From a virus, in the UHGV virus genome UHGV-0140151: a stretch of 16,798 nucleotides of DNA; one strand, written 5' to 3'. The translations under genes and the position numbers were made by a program. A model generated the notes under the pieces. That model was not told the DNA's origin. It saw only the letters and a program-made list of their open reading frames with translations, and searched no databases. Shown here in pieces: positions 5,245-16,442 of this stretch; position 1 is the first letter of the stretch; each line of letters begins with the position of its first letter.

Positions 5245-5476
5245 GATTCACCGCAAAAGGTTTCCGATTTCGTGGCAGCTTATCCAGTGTGTGATTTCAT
5301 CAGTAATTTTTCGTTGTTTTCACCATATGCTGATGTTTTTTCATATGCGGAAATGCTTTTCCAAAAACGCAACAACCAAACAAAAAAGTCATGTTTATAA
5401 ACATTTTTGTTGTGTTTTATATCTTTTGTGTTACCATTCTTGCCGCCCATGATGGATAAATTGCATAAGGAAACTT

Positions 5477-5659
5477 GTGAAGTATTCAGAGTTCAAACGC
5501 TGGTTAATCCAGCAAGGGGCAGAGTTCAGGAAAGCGCCTGGTGGCGGCAGTCATCAGAAAGTGAACCTGAACGGAAAGCGGTCGGTTTTCCCGGACCACG
5601 GTTCAAAGGAAATGCCTGAACCGCTACGCAAGAAAATAATGAAGGACCTGGGGCTTTAA
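5477..5659 (+). CDS. hicA: HicA-family mRNA interferase toxin
   Basis: 60-aa ORF with GTG start preceded by AAGGA. Sequence (GSHQK...GKRSVFPDHGSKEMPEPLRKKIMKDLGL) recalls E. coli HicA; immediately followed by hicB. Confidence 0.85.
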   Translation: MKYSEFKRWLIQQGAEFRKAPGGGSHQKVNLNGKRSVFPDHGSKEMPEPLRKKIMKDLGL

Positions 5660-5689
5660 GCCCCAGCCTTTTTCACTAGGAGCTTCTCT

Positions 5690-6121
5690 ATGTTTAACTA
5701 TCCGGTAAAACTGGAGCGCGACGACAAAACCGGCGCGTATGTCGTATCATGCCGCGACCTACCATTGTTTAATTCCGTGGGTGACTCAGTTGAAGAAGCG
5801 TTGCTTGAGGCTGGTTATGGATTGGTCGCAGCGGTTGCGATTGAGATTGAAGAACGCCGACCTGTTCCCACTGGTAGCGAGCCAAAAGAAGGTGAGTACG
5901 TTGTCTCTTTGCCAGTGCTACCAGCAATGAAGGCTGCACTCCACAACGCGATGATAGAAACCGGCACACGCAAAGCAGAGTTGGCGCGCAAACTCGGCAA
6001 AAATGGAACACAGATTGATCGGCTTCTCGACGTCGAACATTCATCGAAAGTTGAAACTGTCGAGCTGGCACTGCATCAACTGAATAAAAATATCGCCGTA
6101 TCTGTCACACCAATGCGGTGA
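5690..6121 (+). CDS. hicB: HicB-family antitoxin
   Basis: 143-aa ORF with AGGAG Shine-Dalgarno. HicB-like N-terminal domain and C-terminal HTH (RKAELARKLGKNGTQIDRLL). Its stop codon TGA (6119..6121) lies inside the IS-end-like repeat copy. Confidence 0.85.
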   Translation: MFNYPVKLERDDKTGAYVVSCRDLPLFNSVGDSVEEALLEAGYGLVAAVAIEIEERRPVPTGSEPKEGEYVVSLPVLPAMKAALHNAMIETGTRKAELARKLGKNGTQIDRLLDVEHSSKVETVELALHQLNKNIAVSVTPMR

Positions 6122-6293: not shown

Positions 6294-6310
6294 CCCTCCC
6301 TCCCCCCCCC
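6294..6310. repeat. homopolymeric C tract (ccctccct + 9 C)
   Basis: Directly visible: ccctccctccccccccc. Lies about 85 bp upstream of the putative -35 of the cargo operon. Confidence 0.9.
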
Positions 6311-6391
6311 ATTTTTACAGGATAAATATCAACCGAATTTATCTCATCGACATCTCTAATCGAAATCAGTGCTACGCCCAGTTTACTAAAC

Positions 6392-6419
6392 TTGCAGTTT
6401 AATAAAAAATTAGTATCAT
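6392..6419 (+). promoter_or_regulatory. candidate sigma70-type promoter for the XRE / 252-aa operon
   Basis: TTGCAG (6392..6397), 16-nt AT-rich spacer, TATCAT (6414..6419); GGAGGG Shine-Dalgarno at 6430..6435 precedes ATG 6441. The -35 match is weak. Confidence 0.3.
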
Positions 6420-6440
6420 GGTGGATATCGGAGGGTGGTG

Positions 6441-6896
6441 ATGAAAACATCTTATTTGACAATTTTAGCATTTCATATTCGAGACCTTCGCGAGGAGAAA
6501 GGAATCACCCAATTAGACATAGCGAACAAGCTAGGTATGACAAGTGCTGGTTGGGGGAAAATTGAAAATGGCAAATCGGCTCTCTCAGTAGAGAATATGT
6601 TAAAATTTTGCAAGATTATGGATATAGATCCATGCGTCCTACTTAACATATCTACAGAGTCCGCACGGATGTTAATTGAAAAAGGCTGGGTAGTATCTTA
6701 TTCACCTGTTGAGCGTGATAATCTTATAGATGGGAAAAATATATATACCAAGCTACATACAATGAATAATATTATGAGGAAATTTGTTGGTGAGCATTTG
6801 GAGGAAATATTAACAAGAGAATATAAAGACAGCATAACAAAATGCTCAACAATTTATATGGTTATTGTCAATAAGTTAGGTGTAAACATTATTTAA
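6441..6896 (+). CDS. XRE-family helix-turn-helix protein with a C-terminal domain of unknown function
   Basis: The ORF track starts at GTG 6435; ATG 6441 is preferred because of the Shine-Dalgarno spacing. HTH motif (ITQLDIANKLGMTSAGWGKIENGKSALSVENMLKFCKIMDID). AT-rich codon usage unlike the flanking genes. Confidence 0.75.
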   Translation: MKTSYLTILAFHIRDLREEKGITQLDIANKLGMTSAGWGKIENGKSALSVENMLKFCKIMDIDPCVLLNISTESARMLIEKGWVVSYSPVERDNLIDGKNIYTKLHTMNNIMRKFVGEHLEEILTREYKDSITKCSTIYMVIVNKLGVNII

Positions 6897-6913
6897 GCAA
6901 GTGGAGTGTGGAT

Positions 6914-7666
6914 ATGGCTTATCGCGCAGATAGAGATTTAACATTTTTATCGCAGTGCAGCGATTGTGATCTTGATGATCTGGTCAATCTGTTGATTTAT
7001 GACAACGATGGAAAAAAACGCTGGACTGAAGAGTTATCAAACAACCCACTATATAAGCAATTTAGACCTCAACATAGCTTATACTGGCGTGAAATTGCAG
7101 CCGAAATCCAATGCTATGGTGGAAATACATTTGCAACATTGTTGCGTGGTGGAAAAGGAGTTTACTATAAAGAAATTCTTATTGATGTGTGTAAAAGGCT
7201 AAAAGTAAACTTTAATTCTGAAAGCGAAGTGGATGTGATTGAGAGAAATCTTCTTATGAAGATTTTAAGTGATGCTTTAGATAAAATGCCGCAGCAAGAC
7301 ATAAAAGAACTTGCTTTAGAGTTTGGTTTAGTAAACTTAAAAACATTCAATCGTGAAGCGATGCTGGCTGCAATACAATATATTTTTAATAGTGGCGGAT
7401 TTCGATCATATCAAATTACAGTTATGTTAGCCAATGTTATACTAAAGGCATTGATCGGTCGTGGTTTAACAATTGCAGCAAATGCGACTTTAGTTAGAAT
7501 AGTAAGCCTTTTAGCCGGTCCAATTGGATGGGCAATAACGGCCGCATGGACATTAGTTGACATTGGGGGCGCAGCTTATCGCGTTACAATACCTGCAGTG
7601 ATCCAACTAGCCGTTCTCAGAAGTAAAATAAACAATAATATAAAAGTTGATGACATTATTTTCTGA
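6914..7666 (+). CDS. hypothetical protein with a C-terminal glycine-rich hydrophobic (membrane-associating) region; possibly YaaW/UPF0174-like
   Basis: The ORF track starts at GTG 6908; ATG 6914 is preferred (GGAG 7 nt upstream). Sits 18 bp after the XRE gene. C-terminal segment GRGLTIAANATLVRIVSLLAGPIGWAITAAWTLVDIGGAAYRVTIPAVIQLAVL is hydrophobic and Gly/Ala-rich. Family resemblance is from memory only. Confidence 0.7.
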   Translation: MAYRADRDLTFLSQCSDCDLDDLVNLLIYDNDGKKRWTEELSNNPLYKQFRPQHSLYWREIAAEIQCYGGNTFATLLRGGKGVYYKEILIDVCKRLKVNFNSESEVDVIERNLLMKILSDALDKMPQQDIKELALEFGLVNLKTFNREAMLAAIQYIFNSGGFRSYQITVMLANVILKALIGRGLTIAANATLVRIVSLLAGPIGWAITAAWTLVDIGGAAYRVTIPAVIQLAVLRSKINNNIKVDDIIF

Positions 7667-7674
7667 TTAAAAAT

Positions 7675-7698
7675 GGGGCATTGCTGCCCCTTTCTTTC
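7675..7698 (+). terminator. intrinsic terminator of the cargo operon
   Basis: Stem ggggca / tgcccc with loop ttgc, followed by tttcttt; located 9 nt after the stop codon at 7666. Confidence 0.55.
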
Positions 7699-7700
7699 AC

Positions 7701-7900
7701 GCTGCATACCCGTTAGGTGACTGCTCCCCGCCCTGTCGGGCGAGGCTTCCCACTTCTCAGGCCGCAACCGTCTGTGTGACGGATTTACGCTGGCCTCCAT
7801 GGGCAGAAACGACGAGTCCCGCCGCTTGTAATTCCAGTATGCCCTTGCGTTTGATGTTGAGCGCCGCGTTGATATCGCGGTCATGTTCAACTCCACACTC
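7701..7900 (-). ncRNA. putative TnpB-associated omega RNA (reRNA) spanning the tnpB 3' end and right-end hairpin
   Basis: In characterised TnpB elements the guide RNA is made from the 3' end of tnpB plus the right end, with the guide read from flanking DNA. A strong hairpin is present at 7726..7745. Extent is inferred, not observed. Confidence 0.3.
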
Positions 7901-9045
7901 TGGACACTGCCAGATGCGCTTATGTAATGGCATCTCCGACATTTTGTGACCGCAGCAGTGGCAGGTTTTCGAACTGGCGAACCATTGATCCAGTTTCAAC
8001 AGATGCACACCTTTCTCTGCTGCTTTGTATTCCAGTTTTGTGATGAATCCAGACCATCCAGCATCGCCTATCGCACGAGCCAGATGGTGATTTTTCGTCA
8101 TATTTGCCGTTTTCAATGTCTCGACAATTACCGCTTGGTTTTCGTCAACAATTGCACGAGAGAGCTTGTGTTGAAAATCAGCACGGGCATTCGTCACCCG
8201 TTCATGTAAGGCCGCAAGACGGATTCTGGCCTTTTTACGGTTCGCGCTTCCCTTTTGTTTACGGGATAGCGCTTTTTGTTTGCGTCGCAGATTACGGCTG
8301 GCATTGATGAGATGGCGGGGATTCGCAATTTTTGCTCCGTCAGACCTGATGGCGTAGTGCTCAAGCCCCATATCCAGGCCAGTAACTGTTGATATCAACG
8401 TGGGTTTTGCCGGAGCTTCCAGACCATCATCGCAAAGTAGCGACGCATAATATTTACCCGTTTCTGAACGGGTGATAGTAATGCTTTTCAGCTTTCCATG
8501 AAGTTCACGATGAAGGCGTGCTTCTATCGGGGCCAGTTTGGGGATTTTGATGGCATTATCCAGCACCTTAATCCCGACACAGTGGTAGCTCGATTGTTTT
8601 CCGTGTTTACGTTTAAACGTCGGGAACTGCGCTTTCAGCTTCGGATTAAAAAAGTTGGAAAATGCCACATCAAGATTGATTACCGCCTGTTGCAATGCCA
8701 TTGAGTCAAATTCTTTGAGCCAGGCATATTTACGGGACTTTTTGGCCACAGACAACAACGGTTTCAGATCGTTACGCGGACTTAAATTTACTCCGTGTCT
8801 CTGGTAAGCGTGTTTTTTGATGTGAAGAGCTTTATTGTACGCAAAGCGTACCGCGCCGAACTGGGCATTGAGATACTTTGCCTGTTCCGGTGTTGGATAG
8901 ATGCGTACTTTTGTTGCTCTTAACATAGTCACTGCTCATTGGTACAGGTTTTTATGCTAACACCGTAATAATATTTTTAAAGCCCTATGGGCTTTTCCGC
9001 CTTTCCTCCCCGCCCGCATTGGGCGAGGGTTCTCGGCGGTTTTTC
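7717..9045 (-). mobile_element. IS200/IS605-family insertion sequence carrying tnpB only (no tnpA)
   Basis: TnpB ORF flanked by subterminal imperfect palindromes (7726..7745 and 9006..9028, both ctccccgccc-N-gggcgagg). The left boundary is set by the point where identity with the 6118 copy begins; the right boundary is approximate. Confidence 0.7.
7757..8932 (-). CDS. tnpB: TnpB (IS200/IS605 OrfB-family, RNA-guided nuclease-type transposase accessory protein)
   Basis: 391-aa ORF with N-terminal MTMLRATKVRIYPTPEQ, RuvC-like motifs (GLDMGLEHYA; EYKAAEKG) and a C-terminal zinc finger (CHCCGHK...CPECG). Confidence 0.9.
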   Translation of the reverse strand: MTMLRATKVRIYPTPEQAKYLNAQFGAVRFAYNKALHIKKHAYQRHGVNLSPRNDLKPLLSVAKKSRKYAWLKEFDSMALQQAVINLDVAFSNFFNPKLKAQFPTFKRKHGKQSSYHCVGIKVLDNAIKIPKLAPIEARLHRELHGKLKSITITRSETGKYYASLLCDDGLEAPAKPTLISTVTGLDMGLEHYAIRSDGAKIANPRHLINASRNLRRKQKALSRKQKGSANRKKARIRLAALHERVTNARADFQHKLSRAIVDENQAVIVETLKTANMTKNHHLARAIGDAGWSGFITKLEYKAAEKGVHLLKLDQWFASSKTCHCCGHKMSEMPLHKRIWQCPECGVEHDRDINAALNIKRKGILELQAAGLVVSAHGGQRKSVTQTVAA

Positions 9046-9398
9046 GCTGAAACCCAGTTTACGGTCTGTTCTTTGGCCTGGTCGAGTGTCAAAAATTCAC
9101 CAATATATTGAGATATGCCTCTCAAAGCATCGATGAACTCCATTTGTGATGATTTAGTAAATGCACCACTAAGGAAGTCAACAACAATTTTAGGCGTTTC
9201 TTGTGCCGCCGGTTGCACTTCCTCTTCTTGCTGTTGCGCTGGATTATTCGATGAACCAAGCCCCAGCTTCATCATCACTTCAACGATCCGCACGCCAATA
9301 GTGACACGTTGTACCGCAGTCGCGCTTTTTTGCGCTGACATCAGCTCAGACAGTTCTTTGCCTAAGCTAAGGCGCTCCGTTACTGATATTTTCACCAC
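8985..9398 (-). CDS. hypothetical phage protein whose 3' end is encoded by the IS left-end hairpin (chimeric or truncated)
   Basis: 137-aa ORF overlapping the upstream gene by 7 nt. Its last 16 codons (REPSPNAGGEERRKSP) and stop are encoded by 8985..9035, which lies within the IS end. Confidence 0.5.
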   Translation of the reverse strand: MVKISVTERLSLGKELSELMSAQKSATAVQRVTIGVRIVEVMMKLGLGSSNNPAQQQEEEVQPAAQETPKIVVDFLSGAFTKSSQMEFIDALRGISQYIGEFLTLDQAKEQTVNWVSAKNRREPSPNAGGEERRKSP

Positions 9399-11356
9399 AC
9401 GCCCCCTTGTTGTATCTCTGCCAAAATGTTGATCAGGTGATCGGCTGCCGCACCAACAAGTGACTCGTTCTCATCATATCGACCTGCGTTGATAAGAACA
9501 TTAGCTGCCTCCTGAATGCGATCAAACTCCGCTCTAATCACCGTCAAATCACGGGACGTAAACTGCAACGGCACGGATTTCAGATATTCCAGCGCACTGT
9601 CCGCCTCCTGATCAGCCTCACTAACGACTGGCCCATCTGAACCTGTATCAGACTCTTGGGGGGATTCAGGTTCAGACTCAGGTACTGGTTCTGGTACTGG
9701 TTCTGGTACTGCTTCCGGTGCCTGATCTAATGTCTGTTCAGCTTCGACTACTTCTGATTGATTCTGAAGCGCGTCATAGATATCCATTATAAAAAGGTTC
9801 TCCCCATCTCCAAGTGGATAAGCGACGTTAGGAAATGCTTTGCGGAAGAGGATTTTTATCTGCGCCTTAAAGGTTTTCAAGTCGCTTCCAAACAGATCAA
9901 CATAGCCATCAATATGGTTCGACATACTGGACGCAACCAATTCGCCTGCAATCTCTTTCAATTCATCGTCACCAGGGAGATATAGCAACTCGTACTGACT
10001 GACTTCTTCGTCTGTCAGTTTGCGGTCATACGTAATGATTCCGTGACGAGCATATTCGTAATACGGATCAGCCTGATCAGGACGGTCAAGTACAGCTTTA
10101 TTTCCTTCAGGAACCGCACCAACACCCGCTGGGCGAGATTGGAGCGCATAGCGATATTTACCAACCTCCAGGGGATCAGGATGTGATTCTGGTTGTGGTT
10201 CCTGTTCAGGCTGCTGCTGATCAGTTGGCTCAGGCTGGCCCGGCAACACATCCACTTTGTATTGATCAGCATTATGTTCACGATAGGCTTTAAGTAATTT
10301 GGTTGCAGCATCCGCTGAACTCCCACCTTTAACAGCACTGACATCAATACTGAAATTGCCTTCTGGTGCCTCAATCGTGACAAAGCTATCACTGCCTGAC
10401 GTGACATACTTAACTACAGCACCATTATCCAGCGTTGTTTGGCCTTCTGTAGCAAGATTATGTTTTATGTGTCGCAGTTGATCATTGAAGGCACGCTCTT
10501 TAGTTCCTTGGCTCTTAGCTGACAATAAATTATCGCGTTTAGCCTGCAATTCCGCGTTAAGGGCTTTTTGTACGTCTAATTTATTCTGCATATCATTGAG
10601 TGTTGAGCGTTTCTCTGCCAGCCCCCGCTGTGCGTCTTCAACCTGCTCAATCAGCACAGAACGTTCTTCTGCCAGCTTGTCGGCTTCATTGAGATACCCC
10701 TCAATATCAGCCTTCATTTTGTCCTGGCGCTCCTTTGCTTTTTTGAATTTTGCACTATTACGCTCAATGAGGTTAGAAAGCGCCTGGCATACCTGGCTCA
10801 GAGATACATCACGCCCACCGATTGGCGCAACAACATGCGTAACGTTTCTTTTGTTAAGAAGAAACTGAAACGCAACCAGCTCGTCATCCCCTTTAATTCT
10901 TGTGCCGTCTGCGGTTGGAGAATGGAAAATTATGCTTGTCGTTTGCCCATCGGTTAGAGGTATTTGTGCTGTTACAACAGGGATATTTGCAACCCGGCGC
11001 ACGCGCCCAATGATTGCCCCACCGATACTATTACGTCCGTCTTCATATTCTCCTGCCTCATCCGTACCCGCAGCAATGTCAGTGCCATTCAGGCCGCGAT
11101 TAAGCGCCCGGACGAATGCTCGCATTGTTTGCGCTAACCGCAATTTTGTTGTGGTTATAGCTTCGAACATTGCCTCATTGGTAGTTACCAAAATTTCGTT
11201 GCCCATATAGGCCAGCTCGATATCTTCCAGCGTCGCAGGCTCGATAAGTAAATCATCCTCGGTGATATCTTCCGCCACCCAACGATTAGGCGTATATCCA
11301 GTGAGCGTATCTGCAAAAGTGGACTGGATATTTATTCGAATAGGTTTCTTTATCAT
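9392..11356 (-). CDS. large acidic phage protein with coiled-coil and Pro/Glu-rich repeats (possibly a virion internal or Dar-like protein)
   Basis: 654-aa ORF whose start overlaps the upstream stop (ATGA). Contains PEPVPEPVPESEPE and PEQEPQPE low-complexity segments and a central coiled-coil. A DarA-like role is a guess from the operon context (holin-like gene upstream). Confidence 0.6.
   Translation of the reverse strand: MIKKPIRINIQSTFADTLTGYTPNRWVAEDITEDDLLIEPATLEDIELAYMGNEILVTTNEAMFEAITTTKLRLAQTMRAFVRALNRGLNGTDIAAGTDEAGEYEDGRNSIGGAIIGRVRRVANIPVVTAQIPLTDGQTTSIIFHSPTADGTRIKGDDELVAFQFLLNKRNVTHVVAPIGGRDVSLSQVCQALSNLIERNSAKFKKAKERQDKMKADIEGYLNEADKLAEERSVLIEQVEDAQRGLAEKRSTLNDMQNKLDVQKALNAELQAKRDNLLSAKSQGTKERAFNDQLRHIKHNLATEGQTTLDNGAVVKYVTSGSDSFVTIEAPEGNFSIDVSAVKGGSSADAATKLLKAYREHNADQYKVDVLPGQPEPTDQQQPEQEPQPESHPDPLEVGKYRYALQSRPAGVGAVPEGNKAVLDRPDQADPYYEYARHGIITYDRKLTDEEVSQYELLYLPGDDELKEIAGELVASSMSNHIDGYVDLFGSDLKTFKAQIKILFRKAFPNVAYPLGDGENLFIMDIYDALQNQSEVVEAEQTLDQAPEAVPEPVPEPVPESEPESPQESDTGSDGPVVSEADQEADSALEYLKSVPLQFTSRDLTVIRAEFDRIQEAANVLINAGRYDENESLVGAAADHLINILAEIQQGGVW
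9680..9715. repeat. three tandem 12-bp units (ggtactggttct) inside the 654-aa gene
   Basis: Directly visible; encodes in-frame PEPV repeats on the minus strand. Confidence 0.85.
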
Positions 11357-11970
11357 GCATCTTCCTCCAGGCGCGCTATTTCTTCTTTCAATACGCGAGT
11401 TTTCGCCAGTTCCTGCGCCATCTCGGTTCTAATGATTTCAGTTTCTCTTGTTGCGCGGTCTGAATTACCTTGCACCTGATTTAATTTTTCTTTGGCCCTT
11501 TCAATATCCTCGCGGATCGCATCGCGAGATTCCTTTGCCTCTGCTAGTTTCTGCGCATTGGACTTAACGCCTTTTATTTTCTTATTCCCATCATCAATAT
11601 CTTTCGCCGCACGAGCTAACTTACGCGCCAATGATTTCTGAAATGATGATGCGCCTTTATTAAATAAAGCAGCCAGTGATTGCCCTAAAGCCGTCAGCGT
11701 TTTAACAGGCTTGAAAGGAACAATTTTTCCGTTCAGTTTTACACCAGAAATATCACCAGTATCATTAACCTGAACGTCCATCGTCTGCTCATCGATTCCG
11801 ATAAGGGTAAACGTGCGCGTCATGATCCCGTCTTTCTTCCTGCCATTACTTGCAGGGATCACCCTCGCTATCTTGTAGCCTCCTTTACCGATTTCTTTGA
11901 CGAGTTTTGCCAGCCCCTTTTCGTTTAACTCATCATAATTAAGAAGAACATAATTAGACTTATTTGACAT
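11353..11970 (-). CDS. hypothetical coiled-coil phage protein
   Basis: ORF track gives 11353..11994; start at ATG 11970 is preferred (AGGAG 7 nt upstream). C-terminal half is strongly charged coiled-coil. Confidence 0.55.
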   Translation of the reverse strand: MSNKSNYVLLNYDELNEKGLAKLVKEIGKGGYKIARVIPASNGRKKDGIMTRTFTLIGIDEQTMDVQVNDTGDISGVKLNGKIVPFKPVKTLTALGQSLAALFNKGASSFQKSLARKLARAAKDIDDGNKKIKGVKSNAQKLAEAKESRDAIREDIERAKEKLNQVQGNSDRATRETEIIRTEMAQELAKTRVLKEEIARLEEDA

Positions 11971-12732: not shown

Positions 12733-12835
12733 ACCCCTCCAGAAATGACGTTTAACGCGGTTTCAACTTATCCAGTTTGTTATTTCCTTACAGGACATCT
12801 TCTAGAATCGTATCCTTAGCATACAAGGGTGACAT

Positions 12836-13268: not shown

Positions 13269-13841
13269 TTACAACTCAGTTTGAGTTTGGCGCTTCTCTA
13301 CAGGGTGATAACGATAAATCGTCGATACACCGATATCGTAAATAATTGCCAACTGTTTCCTGCTGTAGCCATTTTCGATCAACCTCGCTATTTGCTCATG
13401 TTGTTCTTTTGTCAACTTCGGGCGACGTCCGCCAATGCGTCCCTGTTCGCGTGCAGCTGCCAGTCCGGCCAGGGTTCTCTCAACAATTAATTCACGTTCC
13501 ATTTCTGCCAAAGCCCCCATGACGTGAAAAAAGAAACGCCCCATGGGTGTTGAGGTGTCAATGCTGTCTGTCAGACTACGGAAATTAACACCTTTTTCCC
13601 GCAGCTCCTCAATAAGCGTGATCAGGTGTTTCATACTTCTGCCGAGCCTGTCCAGCTTCCAGACAACCAGCGTATCTCCTTCTGATAACGTTCTGAGCAG
13701 CTTTTTCAATCCTGGTCTGGCTGACTTTGTTCCGCTGATTTTATCTTCAAAAATTAGTTCACATCCTGCGCAGTTCAGTGCATTTCTTTGTAAATCTGTG
13801 TTTTGGTCATTTGTTGACACACGAATGTAGCCAATTTGCAT
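13269..13841 (-). CDS. serine DNA invertase (Gin/Cin/Pin/Hin/Min family)
   Basis: ORF track gives 13269..13850; ATG 13841 is preferred (GAGG 9 nt upstream), giving MQIGYIRVSTNDQNTDLQRNAL... Catalytic-serine motif (VSTNDQ), central WKLDRLGRS and C-terminal HTH are typical of Pin/Cin. Confidence 0.9.
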   Translation of the reverse strand: MQIGYIRVSTNDQNTDLQRNALNCAGCELIFEDKISGTKSARPGLKKLLRTLSEGDTLVVWKLDRLGRSMKHLITLIEELREKGVNFRSLTDSIDTSTPMGRFFFHVMGALAEMERELIVERTLAGLAAAREQGRIGGRRPKLTKEQHEQIARLIENGYSRKQLAIIYDIGVSTIYRYHPVEKRQTQTEL

Positions 13842-13894
13842 GAAAAACATCCTCTTGTTTAGTTAAAAATACATAGTTGGTATAGGTAGGGATT

Positions 13895-13920
13895 AAGACT
13901 AAAACGTTGGTTTGGGGGAA
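13895..13920 (+). other. putative invertase crossover site 1 (gix/hix-like)
   Basis: aagactaaaacgTTggtttgggggaa; core AAAACG-TT-GGTTT resembles hix/gix (AAAACC-AA-GGTTT). About 50 bp from the invertase start, at the 5' edge of cassette 1. Confidence 0.45.
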
Positions 13921-14373
13921 GGCTCAGCATTGCCCGTTGGCGTGCCCGTTCCGTGGCCCTTAGAAACACCACCAACGGGCTGGCTGAAATGCAATGGTGC
14001 AGCATTTTCTTCTGAAAAGTACCCAAAACTGGCAAAGGCTTACCCGACAAATAAATTGCCTGATTTACGCGGTGAATTTATTCGTGGCTGGGATGATGGG
14101 CGTGGTGTGGATGCCGGGCGACAATTATTATCTTCACAGGGGGATGCAATAAGAAATATTGAGGGGTTCGCAGATGGCGGGATCGGCATGTCTTTTGATG
14201 CAATCAGAGGGGCTTTTTATGATGCAGGAACACGATCTGCGAGAATGCCGAATAACACAACTGATATAGGCAAAACCGATGACCTTGGATTCGACGCCTC
14301 TCGTGTCGTGCCAACAGCTAATGAAAACCGTCCTCGTAATATTGCCTTTAATTATATCGTAAGGGCGGCATAA
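13912..14373 (+). CDS. tail-fibre C-terminal variable cassette 1 (promoterless, silent orientation)
   Basis: Collar-type motif (PVPWP...TGWLKCNGAAFS...YP..LAKAYPTNKLPDLRGEFIRGWDDGRG), unique middle, shared ending RPRNIAFNYIVRAA. No ATG; the frame is open upstream through the crossover site. Confidence 0.7.
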   Translation: MGEGSALPVGVPVPWPLETPPTGWLKCNGAAFSSEKYPKLAKAYPTNKLPDLRGEFIRGWDDGRGVDAGRQLLSSQGDAIRNIEGFADGGIGMSFDAIRGAFYDAGTRSARMPNNTTDIGKTDDLGFDASRVVPTANENRPRNIAFNYIVRAA

Positions 14374-14392
14374 AAACGTTGGTTTGGGGGAA
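14367..14392 (+). other. putative invertase crossover site 2
   Basis: ggcataaaaacgTTggtttgggggaa; same core as site 1; overlaps the stop of cassette 1. Confidence 0.45.
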
Positions 14393-14890
14393 GGCTCTGC
14401 GCTGCCCGTTGGTGTACCTGTTCCATGGCCATCAGCCACACCGCCAACGGGGTGGCTGAAATGTAACGGAGCAGCATTTTCTTCTGAAAAGTACCCAAAT
14501 CTGGCAAAGGTTTACCCCACCAATAAATTGCCGGATCTACGGGGCGAATTTATTCGTGGCTGGGATGACGGACGTGGTATGGATACGGGGAGGGCAATAT
14601 TATCCGCTCAGGGCGATGCCATACGTAATATCTATGGTGAGTTCAAGACTGTAAACACCGAAAATTATTCAATATGGGAATCAGTAGGCTCGTTTAAGGG
14701 GGCAGTAGTGCCTTTGAGCCCCTCAACGAACAATAGTTATTTCTCCTTAGTCAGAAGTATGGTGACAGAAAGAACAGATGGCGCTGTTTACCCAAAAGTG
14801 ATTGGCCTTGATGCTTCAAGAATTGTTCCAACTGCAAACGAAAACCGTCCTCGTAACATTGCGTTTAATTACATCGTAAGAGCCGCATGA
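14384..14890 (+). CDS. tail-fibre C-terminal variable cassette 2 (silent)
   Basis: Same conserved 5' collar-type segment and 3' RPRNIAFNYIVRAA as cassette 1, with a different middle (...EFKTVNTENYSIWESVGSFKG...). Confidence 0.7.
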   Translation: MGEGSALPVGVPVPWPSATPPTGWLKCNGAAFSSEKYPNLAKVYPTNKLPDLRGEFIRGWDDGRGMDTGRAILSAQGDAIRNIYGEFKTVNTENYSIWESVGSFKGAVVPLSPSTNNSYFSLVRSMVTERTDGAVYPKVIGLDASRIVPTANENRPRNIAFNYIVRAA

Positions 14891-14909
14891 AAACGTTGGT
14901 TTGGGGGAA
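14884..14909 (+). other. putative invertase crossover site 3
   Basis: cgcatgaaaacgTTggtttgggggaa; same core as sites 1 and 2. Confidence 0.45.
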
Positions 14910-15362
14910 GGCTCTGCGCTGCCCGTTGGTGTACCTGTTCCGTGGCCCTCAGCCACACCACCAACGGGCTGGCTAAAATGTAACGGTGCGGCATTTTCTG
15001 CTGAAGAATACCCGGAATTGGCAAAGGCTTATCCGACAAATAAATTGCCTGATTTACGTGGTGAGTTTATGCGTGGCTGGGATGATGGAAGAGGCGTTGA
15101 TAGTGGCAGGGAGATTCTCACTGCGCAATCTCATGGTATGCCGTCTATTTCAGGAACGTTTAATGGTCTTTTTGCTGTTAAACAAACAAATGGTTTAGGT
15201 GGTGTTTCTGTAGTAAAAAGTAAAAATGCTGAAACTTTATCTACTTCATCTGGATCAGGTTCCGTGTTTGATTACACGTTTAATGTCAGCGGCTCGACTC
15301 CGGTATCACCAGAACTTCGTCCGCGTAATATTGCATTTAATTACATCGTAAGAGCGGCATAG
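14901..15362 (+). CDS. tail-fibre C-terminal variable cassette 3 (silent)
   Basis: Conserved ends as in cassettes 1 and 2; Gly/Ser-rich unique middle. Confidence 0.7.
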   Translation: MGEGSALPVGVPVPWPSATPPTGWLKCNGAAFSAEEYPELAKAYPTNKLPDLRGEFMRGWDDGRGVDSGREILTAQSHGMPSISGTFNGLFAVKQTNGLGGVSVVKSKNAETLSTSSGSGSVFDYTFNVSGSTPVSPELRPRNIAFNYIVRAA

Positions 15363-15381
15363 AAACGTTGGTTTAGGGGAA
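15356..15381 (+). other. putative invertase crossover site 4
   Basis: gcatagaaacgTTggtttaggggaag; same central AAACGTTGGTTT. Confidence 0.4.
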
Positions 15382-15402
15382 GGTTCGGCGCTGCCCGTTG
15401 GC

Positions 15403-15831
15403 GTGCCCGTTCCATGGCCCTCAGCCACACCGCCAACGGGGTGGCTAAAATGTAACGGAGCAGCATTTTCTTCTGAAAAGTACCCCAAGCTGGCAAAGGT
15501 TTACCCAACGTTAAAATTACCTGATTTACGCGGTGAGTTTATCCGTGGTTGGGATGATGGGCGAGGTGTGGATGCGGGAAGGGGCATCTTAAGCATACAG
15601 GGGTGGTTAACAGGAAGTCATTATCATAATATTCGGTCATGGGACGCGTGGGATAACACGGTATTGGTGCCAAATGACAGAGGGGGGGATAGTCTGTTGT
15701 CGACAGATAACGCCGTCCGAGAAGGAGCGATTAATGGTAAATTTACCAGTCAATACAGAACGGAGTTATCTGGGGGGGATGAAACCCGCCCACGTAACAT
15801 TGCCTTCAATTATATTGTGAGAGCAGCATAA
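15403..15831 (+). CDS. tail-fibre C-terminal variable cassette 4 (silent), translationally coupled to tfa
   Basis: Frame is open from site 4 (about 15361). Unique middle with HYH (GSHYHNIRSWD). Stop TAA overlaps the tfa ATG (TAATG). Confidence 0.7.
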   Translation: MPVPWPSATPPTGWLKCNGAAFSSEKYPKLAKVYPTLKLPDLRGEFIRGWDDGRGVDAGRGILSIQGWLTGSHYHNIRSWDAWDNTVLVPNDRGGDSLLSTDNAVREGAINGKFTSQYRTELSGGDETRPRNIAFNYIVRAA

Positions 15832-16442
15832 TGAATAATGCGATATTAAATAGCGAACTTATAGCCATACAGGCAGGAAACATTATCGTTTATAACTATG
15901 ATGGTGAGACACGGGAATATATTTCAGAGTCAACTGAATATCTTGCTGTGGGTGTTGGTATTCCGGCTAATTCCTGTTTAGATGCCCCAGGCGCACATAA
16001 ATCGGGCTATGCTATCCGCCGTTCGGAGGATTTAAATTCATGGGAGTATGCGCCAGACCATCGTGGTGAAACCGTCTATAGCACTGAAACGAGAAACTCC
16101 GAAGAAATAACGGCGCTGGGTGAATACCCGGAAAATACAACTACTCTCGCCCCGCTAACACCATACGACAAATGGGATGGAGATAAATGGGTGGTTGATA
16201 CTGAGGCTCAACATAGTGCAGCTGTAGAGGCAGCAGAAACAAAACGTCAGTCATTGATTGATACTGCGATGGCTTCCATTAGTCTGATTCAGTTGAAATT
16301 ACGGGCTGGACGGAAGTTGACGCAGGCAGAAACCACACAGCTTAACTCTGTGCTAGATTATATAGACGAGCTGAACGCGATGGATTTAACCACGGCACCA
16401 GATCTCAACTGGCCTGAAAAACAACTTTCTGCAGCCAGTTGA
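15831..16442 (+). CDS. tfa: tail-fibre assembly protein (Tfa/U-like chaperone)
   Basis: 203-aa ORF with features typical of Tfa proteins (DKWDGDKWVVD..., C-terminal LNSVLDYIDELNAMDLTTAPDLNWPE). Confidence 0.85.
   Translation: MNNAILNSELIAIQAGNIIVYNYDGETREYISESTEYLAVGVGIPANSCLDAPGAHKSGYAIRRSEDLNSWEYAPDHRGETVYSTETRNSEEITALGEYPENTTTLAPLTPYDKWDGDKWVVDTEAQHSAAVEAAETKRQSLIDTAMASISLIQLKLRAGRKLTQAETTQLNSVLDYIDELNAMDLTTAPDLNWPEKQLSAAS

Follow-up and report, generated by a model that had tools for sequence, protein, structure and literature searches.

A short tandem array lies inside a large reading frame of the virus genome UHGV-0140151, and it raises the question of whether the copy number of such repeats really varies among related genes and, if it does, what the variation means for the encoded protein. 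We analysed the array within the whole available stretch of 16,798 nucleotides, hereafter the window, and compared it with the corresponding genes in public sequence collections.

The repeat array and its reading frame

The array is real and is unlikely to be a product of chance. On the plus strand, positions 9680-9715 read a GGTACTGGTTCT GGTACTGGTTCT GGTACTGCTTC, and positions 9681-9719 read GGTACTGGTTCT GGTACTGGTTCT GGTACTGCTTCC GGT. TRF reports 9681-9719 as a repeat of period 12 with 3.2 copies, 92% matches and a score of 64, and the same stretch also as a repeat of period 6 with 5.2 copies. Two perfect 12-mers are followed by a third with two mismatches. When the window was shuffled 200 times with its dinucleotides preserved, a TRF score of 64 or higher was reached only once, and the mean best score was 34. 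The TRF result and the shuffle control together confirm the in-frame 12-bp tandem repeats that a sequence-only reading had reported at 9680-9715.

The full TRF array (9681..9719) is read on the minus strand and includes the degenerate third unit GGTACTGCTTCC, which gives the PEAV part. The minus-strand frame is CCG GAA GCA GTA / CCA GAA CCA GTA / CCA GAA CCA GTA / CCT GAG TCT, translated as PEAV-PEPV-PEPV-PES at residues 547-561 of the protein, with PEAV-PEPV-PEPV occupying 547-558; the description of these repeats as PEPV was correct. Within this stretch lies a core array of five hexamers (9681..9710, minus strand), which are GGTACT GGTTCT GGTACT GGTTCT GGTACT on the plus strand and GTACCA GAACCA GTACCA GAACCA GTACCT on the coding strand, and code for VP-EP-VP-EP-VP. 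The elementary unit is hence a 6-bp hexamer, G(A/T)ACC(A/T), that encodes (E/V)P and is present five times in the window, and the 12-bp period reflects the alternation of VP with EP units. An E unit differs from a V unit by a single A/T transversion within the hexamer. The units are arranged head to tail, and the unit length is divisible by three.

The host gene and its product

Judged from its sequence, the protein that carries the array is a member of the DarA family, the antirestriction head proteins of the P1 type. Its gene, darA, occupies 9392..11356 on the minus strand (654 aa and a stop codon) and encodes both Pfam domains of the family: DarA_N (PF18788; aa 62-201, 10754..11173, minus strand) scores 135.9 bits against a gathering cut-off of 27 with an E-value of 7.9e-40, and DarA_C (PF18789; aa 399-461, 9974..10162, minus strand) scores 69.2 bits against the same cut-off of 27 with an E-value of 4.3e-19. 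The reading frame matches phrog_1926 from end to end. P1 DarA (PDB 9ukm chain I, 9ukm_I) is matched by phmmer with an E-value of 3.2e-123 over residues 36-653 of the window protein, and by Foldseek, using our structural model, with an E-value of 4e-18. A gene of 98.5% identity on the E. coli plasmid NZ_CP104667.1 carries the RefSeq label 'darA: antirestriction phage head protein DarA'. With a pI of 4.6 and a net charge of -45, the product is acidic, in agreement with the large acidic protein that had been proposed as the host of the repeats.

The neighbouring genes on the same strand are those of a Dar operon. Directly upstream of darA is hdf (11353..11970, minus strand), the gene of a DarA-related partner protein, and lydB and a gene for a LydA-type holin are also found upstream; directly downstream is a ddrA-like gene (8985..9398, minus strand; phrog_1855). 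ddrB is not in the window. All of the E. coli genome matches are on plasmids of ~90 kb, which identifies the window as a piece of a D6/P1-like phage-plasmid. Among named phages D6 comes closest, with 78.7% nucleotide identity over 82% of darA; it was the only phage matched in the megablast search against phages, in an alignment that does not span the linker and so carries no allele information.

In P1, DarA is packaged into the head, processed at its N-terminus by the protease Pro and needed for protection against type I restriction (PMC12810830). By cryo-EM, the inside of the capsid carries 55 DarA-Hdf pairs, located where pentons and hexons meet, and the packaging of the other Dar proteins into the P1 head requires both DarA and Hdf (PMC12810830).

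Position of the array within the protein

The array falls in a linker that is predicted to be disordered. We modelled DarA with AlphaFold2 from a 66-sequence alignment (mean pLDDT 69), and the model has pLDDT below 50 at residues 1-68, 374-394 and 542-577. The last of these gaps is linker 2 (TLDQAPEAVPEPVPEPVPESEPESPQESDTGSDGPV; 9626..9733, minus strand), which has a net charge of -10 and nine prolines in 36 residues, and the array at 547-561 lies within it. A run of alternating X-Pro dipeptides would be expected to behave as an acidic spacer that is extended and fairly stiff. On either side of the linker the pLDDT is about 81-90, and the confidently folded parts of the model are residues 395-541 and a three-helix bundle (aa 578-651). 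This agrees with the linker location that had been suggested from the DNA letters.

The C-terminal bundle, delimited by the AlphaFold2 helices and by invariant residues, takes up residues 578-654 (9395..9625, minus strand), with helices at 580-598, 604-624 and 627-650 (pLDDT about 81-87) and invariant residues D582, A588, A617, L621, A624, N630, E631, L641 and Q649. The spacing between L530 and D582, both invariant, ranges from 19 to 253 residues among the 66 homologues, and the intervening segment is rich in X-Pro in nearly all of them.

The C-terminal half of DarA extends beyond the known structure. The P1 cryo-EM model contains DarA residues 70-382, while residues 383-639 are missing, 'possibly due to its flexibility' (PMC12810830), and in our Foldseek search of the DarA model against the PDB the match covered P1 DarA residues 70-382 only, with no significant match for the C-terminal half. 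The array marks the boundary of a flexible tether in this half, and it could guide the design of constructs of the C-terminal bundle. At the other end, residues 1-68 of the window protein are predicted to be disordered, like the cleaved residues 1-69 of P1 DarA, whose processing removes ~9 kDa from the N-terminus (PMC12810830). We considered the repeat as a cleavage mark for the Pro protease and rejected this, since the P1 processing is N-terminal and far from residues 547-561.

Another disordered segment is predicted between the two Pfam domains. This linker 1 (aa 372-397; 10166..10243, minus strand) is rich in P, Q and E and includes the low-pLDDT residues 374-394. It reads DQQQPEQ in the window and DQPQPEQ in close relatives, and in the Citrobacter homologues (P0029-P0034) it is a PPEQ/PPEL repeat.

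By megablast, the match of most D6-like plasmids to the window's darA covers only the part from position 9755 (query position 364 of the darA region) to the 5' end of the gene, and so does that of three records with 96-97% identity over the rest of darA. The linker and the C-terminal bundle therefore form a module of their own in divergence or recombination.

Copy number in the lineage of the window

Copy number, unit composition and unit order all vary among near-identical darA genes. Across window positions 9560-9830, the 14 complete E. coli genomes and six plasmid records that match (~95% identity) all span the region in 259 bases instead of 271, a difference of exactly 12 bp from the window. 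We collected 16 darA genes by scanning public collections for the conserved flanks, with the distance between them allowed to vary, and by adding members of differing lengths from the protein cluster; ~16 alleles of this lineage were compared as DNA, and the 90%-identity protein cluster has 341 members. The same scan of genome contigs with one genome per species gave no match.

The 16 genes carry eight array haplotypes with two to five units. Two units (VP-EP) are found in L014 and L015, whose proteins have 648 residues. Three units give 650 residues and occur as VP-EP-EP in L002 and, in an interrupted form, as VQ-EP-EP in seven genes (L001, L004, L005, L006, L008, L010 and L011). The four-unit alleles, with 652 residues, are VP-EP-VP-VP (L007 and L009), VP-VP-VP-VP (L016) and VP-EP-EP-VP (L017). 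Five units and 654 residues are seen in L013, as VP-EP-EP-EP-EP, and in the window, as VP-EP-VP-EP-VP. The same four length classes (648, 650, 652 and 654 aa) are present in the 341-member cluster. The commonest three-unit allele, VQ-EP-EP, is interrupted by a change of CCA to CAA; interruptions of this kind generally tend to stabilise microsatellites.

The rest of the gene is nearly constant. Outside the array the 14 full-length genes have 0-23 differences per ~2,000 bases (at least 98.8% identity), and the 2037-column darA alignment has no indels apart from 18 gap columns, all within the array. The nearest backbones to the window, L016 and L017 with nine differences each and L009 with ten, all carry an array that differs from that of the window (VPVPVPVP, VPEPEPVP and VPEPVPVP, respectively). 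The length polymorphism that the sequence-only reading predicted is borne out by these counts of two, three, four and five hexamers in 16 near-identical genes, and the repeat number is not identical in all homologues. The predicted in-frame change holds as well; the step of four residues does not hold as the only one, because steps of 6 bp and two residues also occur.

Could the extra 12 bp of the window be a miscount of repeats in a low-coverage metagenome assembly? The window is indeed a metagenome contig (ERZ1749178 NODE_1168, ENA) with a coverage of ~4.5x, and its VP-EP-VP-EP-VP allele is in no other DNA record that we surveyed. However, an array of 30-39 bp is far below the ordinary read length, which makes collapse or expansion during assembly unlikely. 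In addition, the exact 654-aa protein is encoded on three contigs of the collection, an independent isolate assembly (L013) has another five-unit allele, and alleles of two, three and four units are present in finished genomes and isolate assemblies. We therefore consider an assembly or sequencing artefact to be highly improbable.

Repeats at the same site in sister lineages

A different repeat unit varies at the same position in related lineages. In a Salmonella/E. coli lineage of 77% identity, the corresponding position of darA holds (CAACCA)n, encoding (QP)n. The Salmonella plasmids CP123682.1, NZ_CP032492.1 and CP082672.1 (L018, L019 and L020) have seven, eight and nine perfect CAACCA units, respectively, and zero differences in darA outside the array, so recombination between diverged alleles does not explain the variation among these three. 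Two further plasmids of the lineage have five and six QP units. The comparison points to a copy number that changes faster than point substitutions accumulate in this sister lineage and does so independently of recombination with diverged alleles. In other lineages (P0006, P0007 and P0026), (AP)n of differing length is found at the same site.

These data also bear on whether the repeat might act at the DNA level or on the other strand, as a binding-site array, a regulatory signal or part of a plus-strand gene. Tandem repeats can serve as arrays of binding sites, and this general precedent is what speaks for such an element here. Against it, the array is deep within a conserved 654-aa reading frame, the darA frame is kept by every length change in all alleles, and the DNA of the unit differs between lineages yet always encodes X-Pro. 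In 9300-10100, promoter- and terminator-like matches stay within what shuffled sequence yields, and none is over the array. We give this explanation almost no credence.

Interpretation of the variation

Our analysis favours, with a probability of roughly 85%, an in-frame hexanucleotide VNTR (a coding microsatellite) in a disordered, length-tolerant linker of DarA, with copy number varied by slippage. The (E/V)-P dipeptides form part of an acidic, proline-rich linker, predicted to be disordered, that joins residues 395-541 to the three-helix bundle, and the number and order of the units would change by slipped-strand mispairing at replication or by unequal exchange over short homology. Slipped-strand mispairing is an established cause of length change in short tandem repeats. 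Because the unit length is divisible by three and the linker lacks a fixed fold, the addition or loss of two or four residues would be tolerated and would persist as polymorphism; a flexible X-Pro spacer would probably cope with two to six extra residues. We infer that slippage is the mutational mechanism and that the variation is neutral or nearly so. The alternation of E and V alters the net charge of the linker, and selection could act on this. Because the frame is always kept, the array does not switch darA on and off. What we describe is an ordinary, routine repeat polymorphism in the disordered linker of a known and annotated protein, and to our knowledge it has not been described before in DarA.

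An adaptive explanation would hold that the number of XP units and their E/V composition determine how far the tether reaches and how stiff and charged it is, as in a contingency-like locus, and that selection favours different lengths with different sets of Dar cargo or in different hosts. XP repeats recur at the linker site across DarA lineages (EP/VP, QP, AP and PEPQ), the head packaging of other Dar proteins needs DarA and Hdf (PMC12810830), and the array of the window is the longest seen in its lineage (five units) in a window where ddrB is absent too. However, a mutational bias in any proline-rich low-complexity linker predicts parallel repeats equally well, the link with the loss of ddrB is a single case, and the changes are small, two to six residues in a disordered segment of 36. 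We regard adaptive tuning as unlikely.

Even more doubtful is the idea that the XP array is a rapidly mutable dial of tether length, through which slippage changes the reach and charge of the linker. If it were true, slippage would alter the identity or amount of the packaged Dar cargo (DdrA, DdrB, DarB and Ulx) or shift the balance between normal and small heads, and would produce heritable, reversible variation in the antirestriction capacity of P1/D6-like phage-plasmids.

For the neutral or nearly neutral polymorphism that we favour, the practical value is small, and alone it bears on no open question. The array does provide a cheap, high-resolution typing marker for near-identical D6/P1-like phage-plasmids, and in the three Salmonella plasmids it could serve as a marker for strain typing.

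Other features of the window

The region downstream of the Dar genes differs from that of the closest relative, NZ_CP104667.1. A 2.7-kb segment (6298-9042) has no counterpart there, and the relative has a ddrB homologue at this place. The segment encodes an HTH_3 protein (6435-6896, plus strand), a 252-aa protein (6908-7666, plus strand) and a TnpB of the IS200/IS605 type (7757-8932, minus strand). The 252-aa protein matches the JukA defence model of PADLOC with an E-value of 5.6e-70 and Pfam DUF3944; no JukB was seen. A candidate defence gene and a TnpB thus appear to have taken the place of an antirestriction cargo gene. The right-hand breakpoint of the replacement is at 9042/9043, inside ddrA, and the DdrA reading frame of the window (3' end 8985-9042) has 137 aa with an altered C-terminal tail, compared with 122 aa in relatives. 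A HicA/HicB toxin-antitoxin pair lies at ~5470-6121, with the portal gene on one side and the Dar region on the other, an arrangement shared with the closest relative.

The homology with NZ_CP104667.1 stops at 12787. A serine invertase of the Cin/Min type (13269-13850, minus strand) is followed by four tandem cassettes for the C-terminus of a tail fibre (13912-14373, 14384-14890, 14901-15362 and 15403-15831) and then by a tail-fibre assembly gene (15831-16442). Three of the cassettes start with MGEGSALPVGVPVPWP and the fourth with MPVPWP, and all four have in common the PPTGWLKCNGAAFS stretch that comes next and the ending RPRNIAFNYIVRAA. The region 13269-15831 has the appearance of an invertible host-range switch with several cassettes, of the p15B/D6 type.

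TRF also found a 25-bp repeat (GTTCAATTTGAACAGGGGGGGCCCA) at 1832-1884, with 2.1 copies and a score of 64. It is located in the reading frame 1389-2348, a lytic replication protein according to the annotation of the relative, and could be an origin or iteron-like element.

Comparison with known systems

The window protein shares with P1 DarA the domain order and the operon context (lydA-lydB-hdf-darA-ddrA), and differs from it in being only ~40% identical and belonging to a D6-like lineage. P1 DarA has a short P/E-rich segment, QPEPVPAQPDE, at the same place, ahead of the conserved SEAD motif, whereas the window protein has a true tandem array; the segment between the L530 and D582 anchors has 53 residues in the window protein and 26 in P1.

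The array resembles the TonB spacer, (Glu-Pro)n/(Lys-Pro)n, and the EP repeats of trypanosome procyclin in composition and probably in physical behaviour only. A match of residues 543-598 to the procyclin/PARP EP-repeat family (PF05887), at 21 bits against a cut-off of 100, shows no homology and was rejected as compositional only.

In-frame coding microsatellites or VNTRs are a general phenomenon of disordered linkers and surface proteins. The darA array resembles them in its unit length, a multiple of three, in a copy number that differs between near-identical alleles, and in its low-complexity, proline-rich setting. It differs in being very short, with two to five units and up to nine in the sister lineage, and in that its host DarA is an internal head protein and not a surface antigen.
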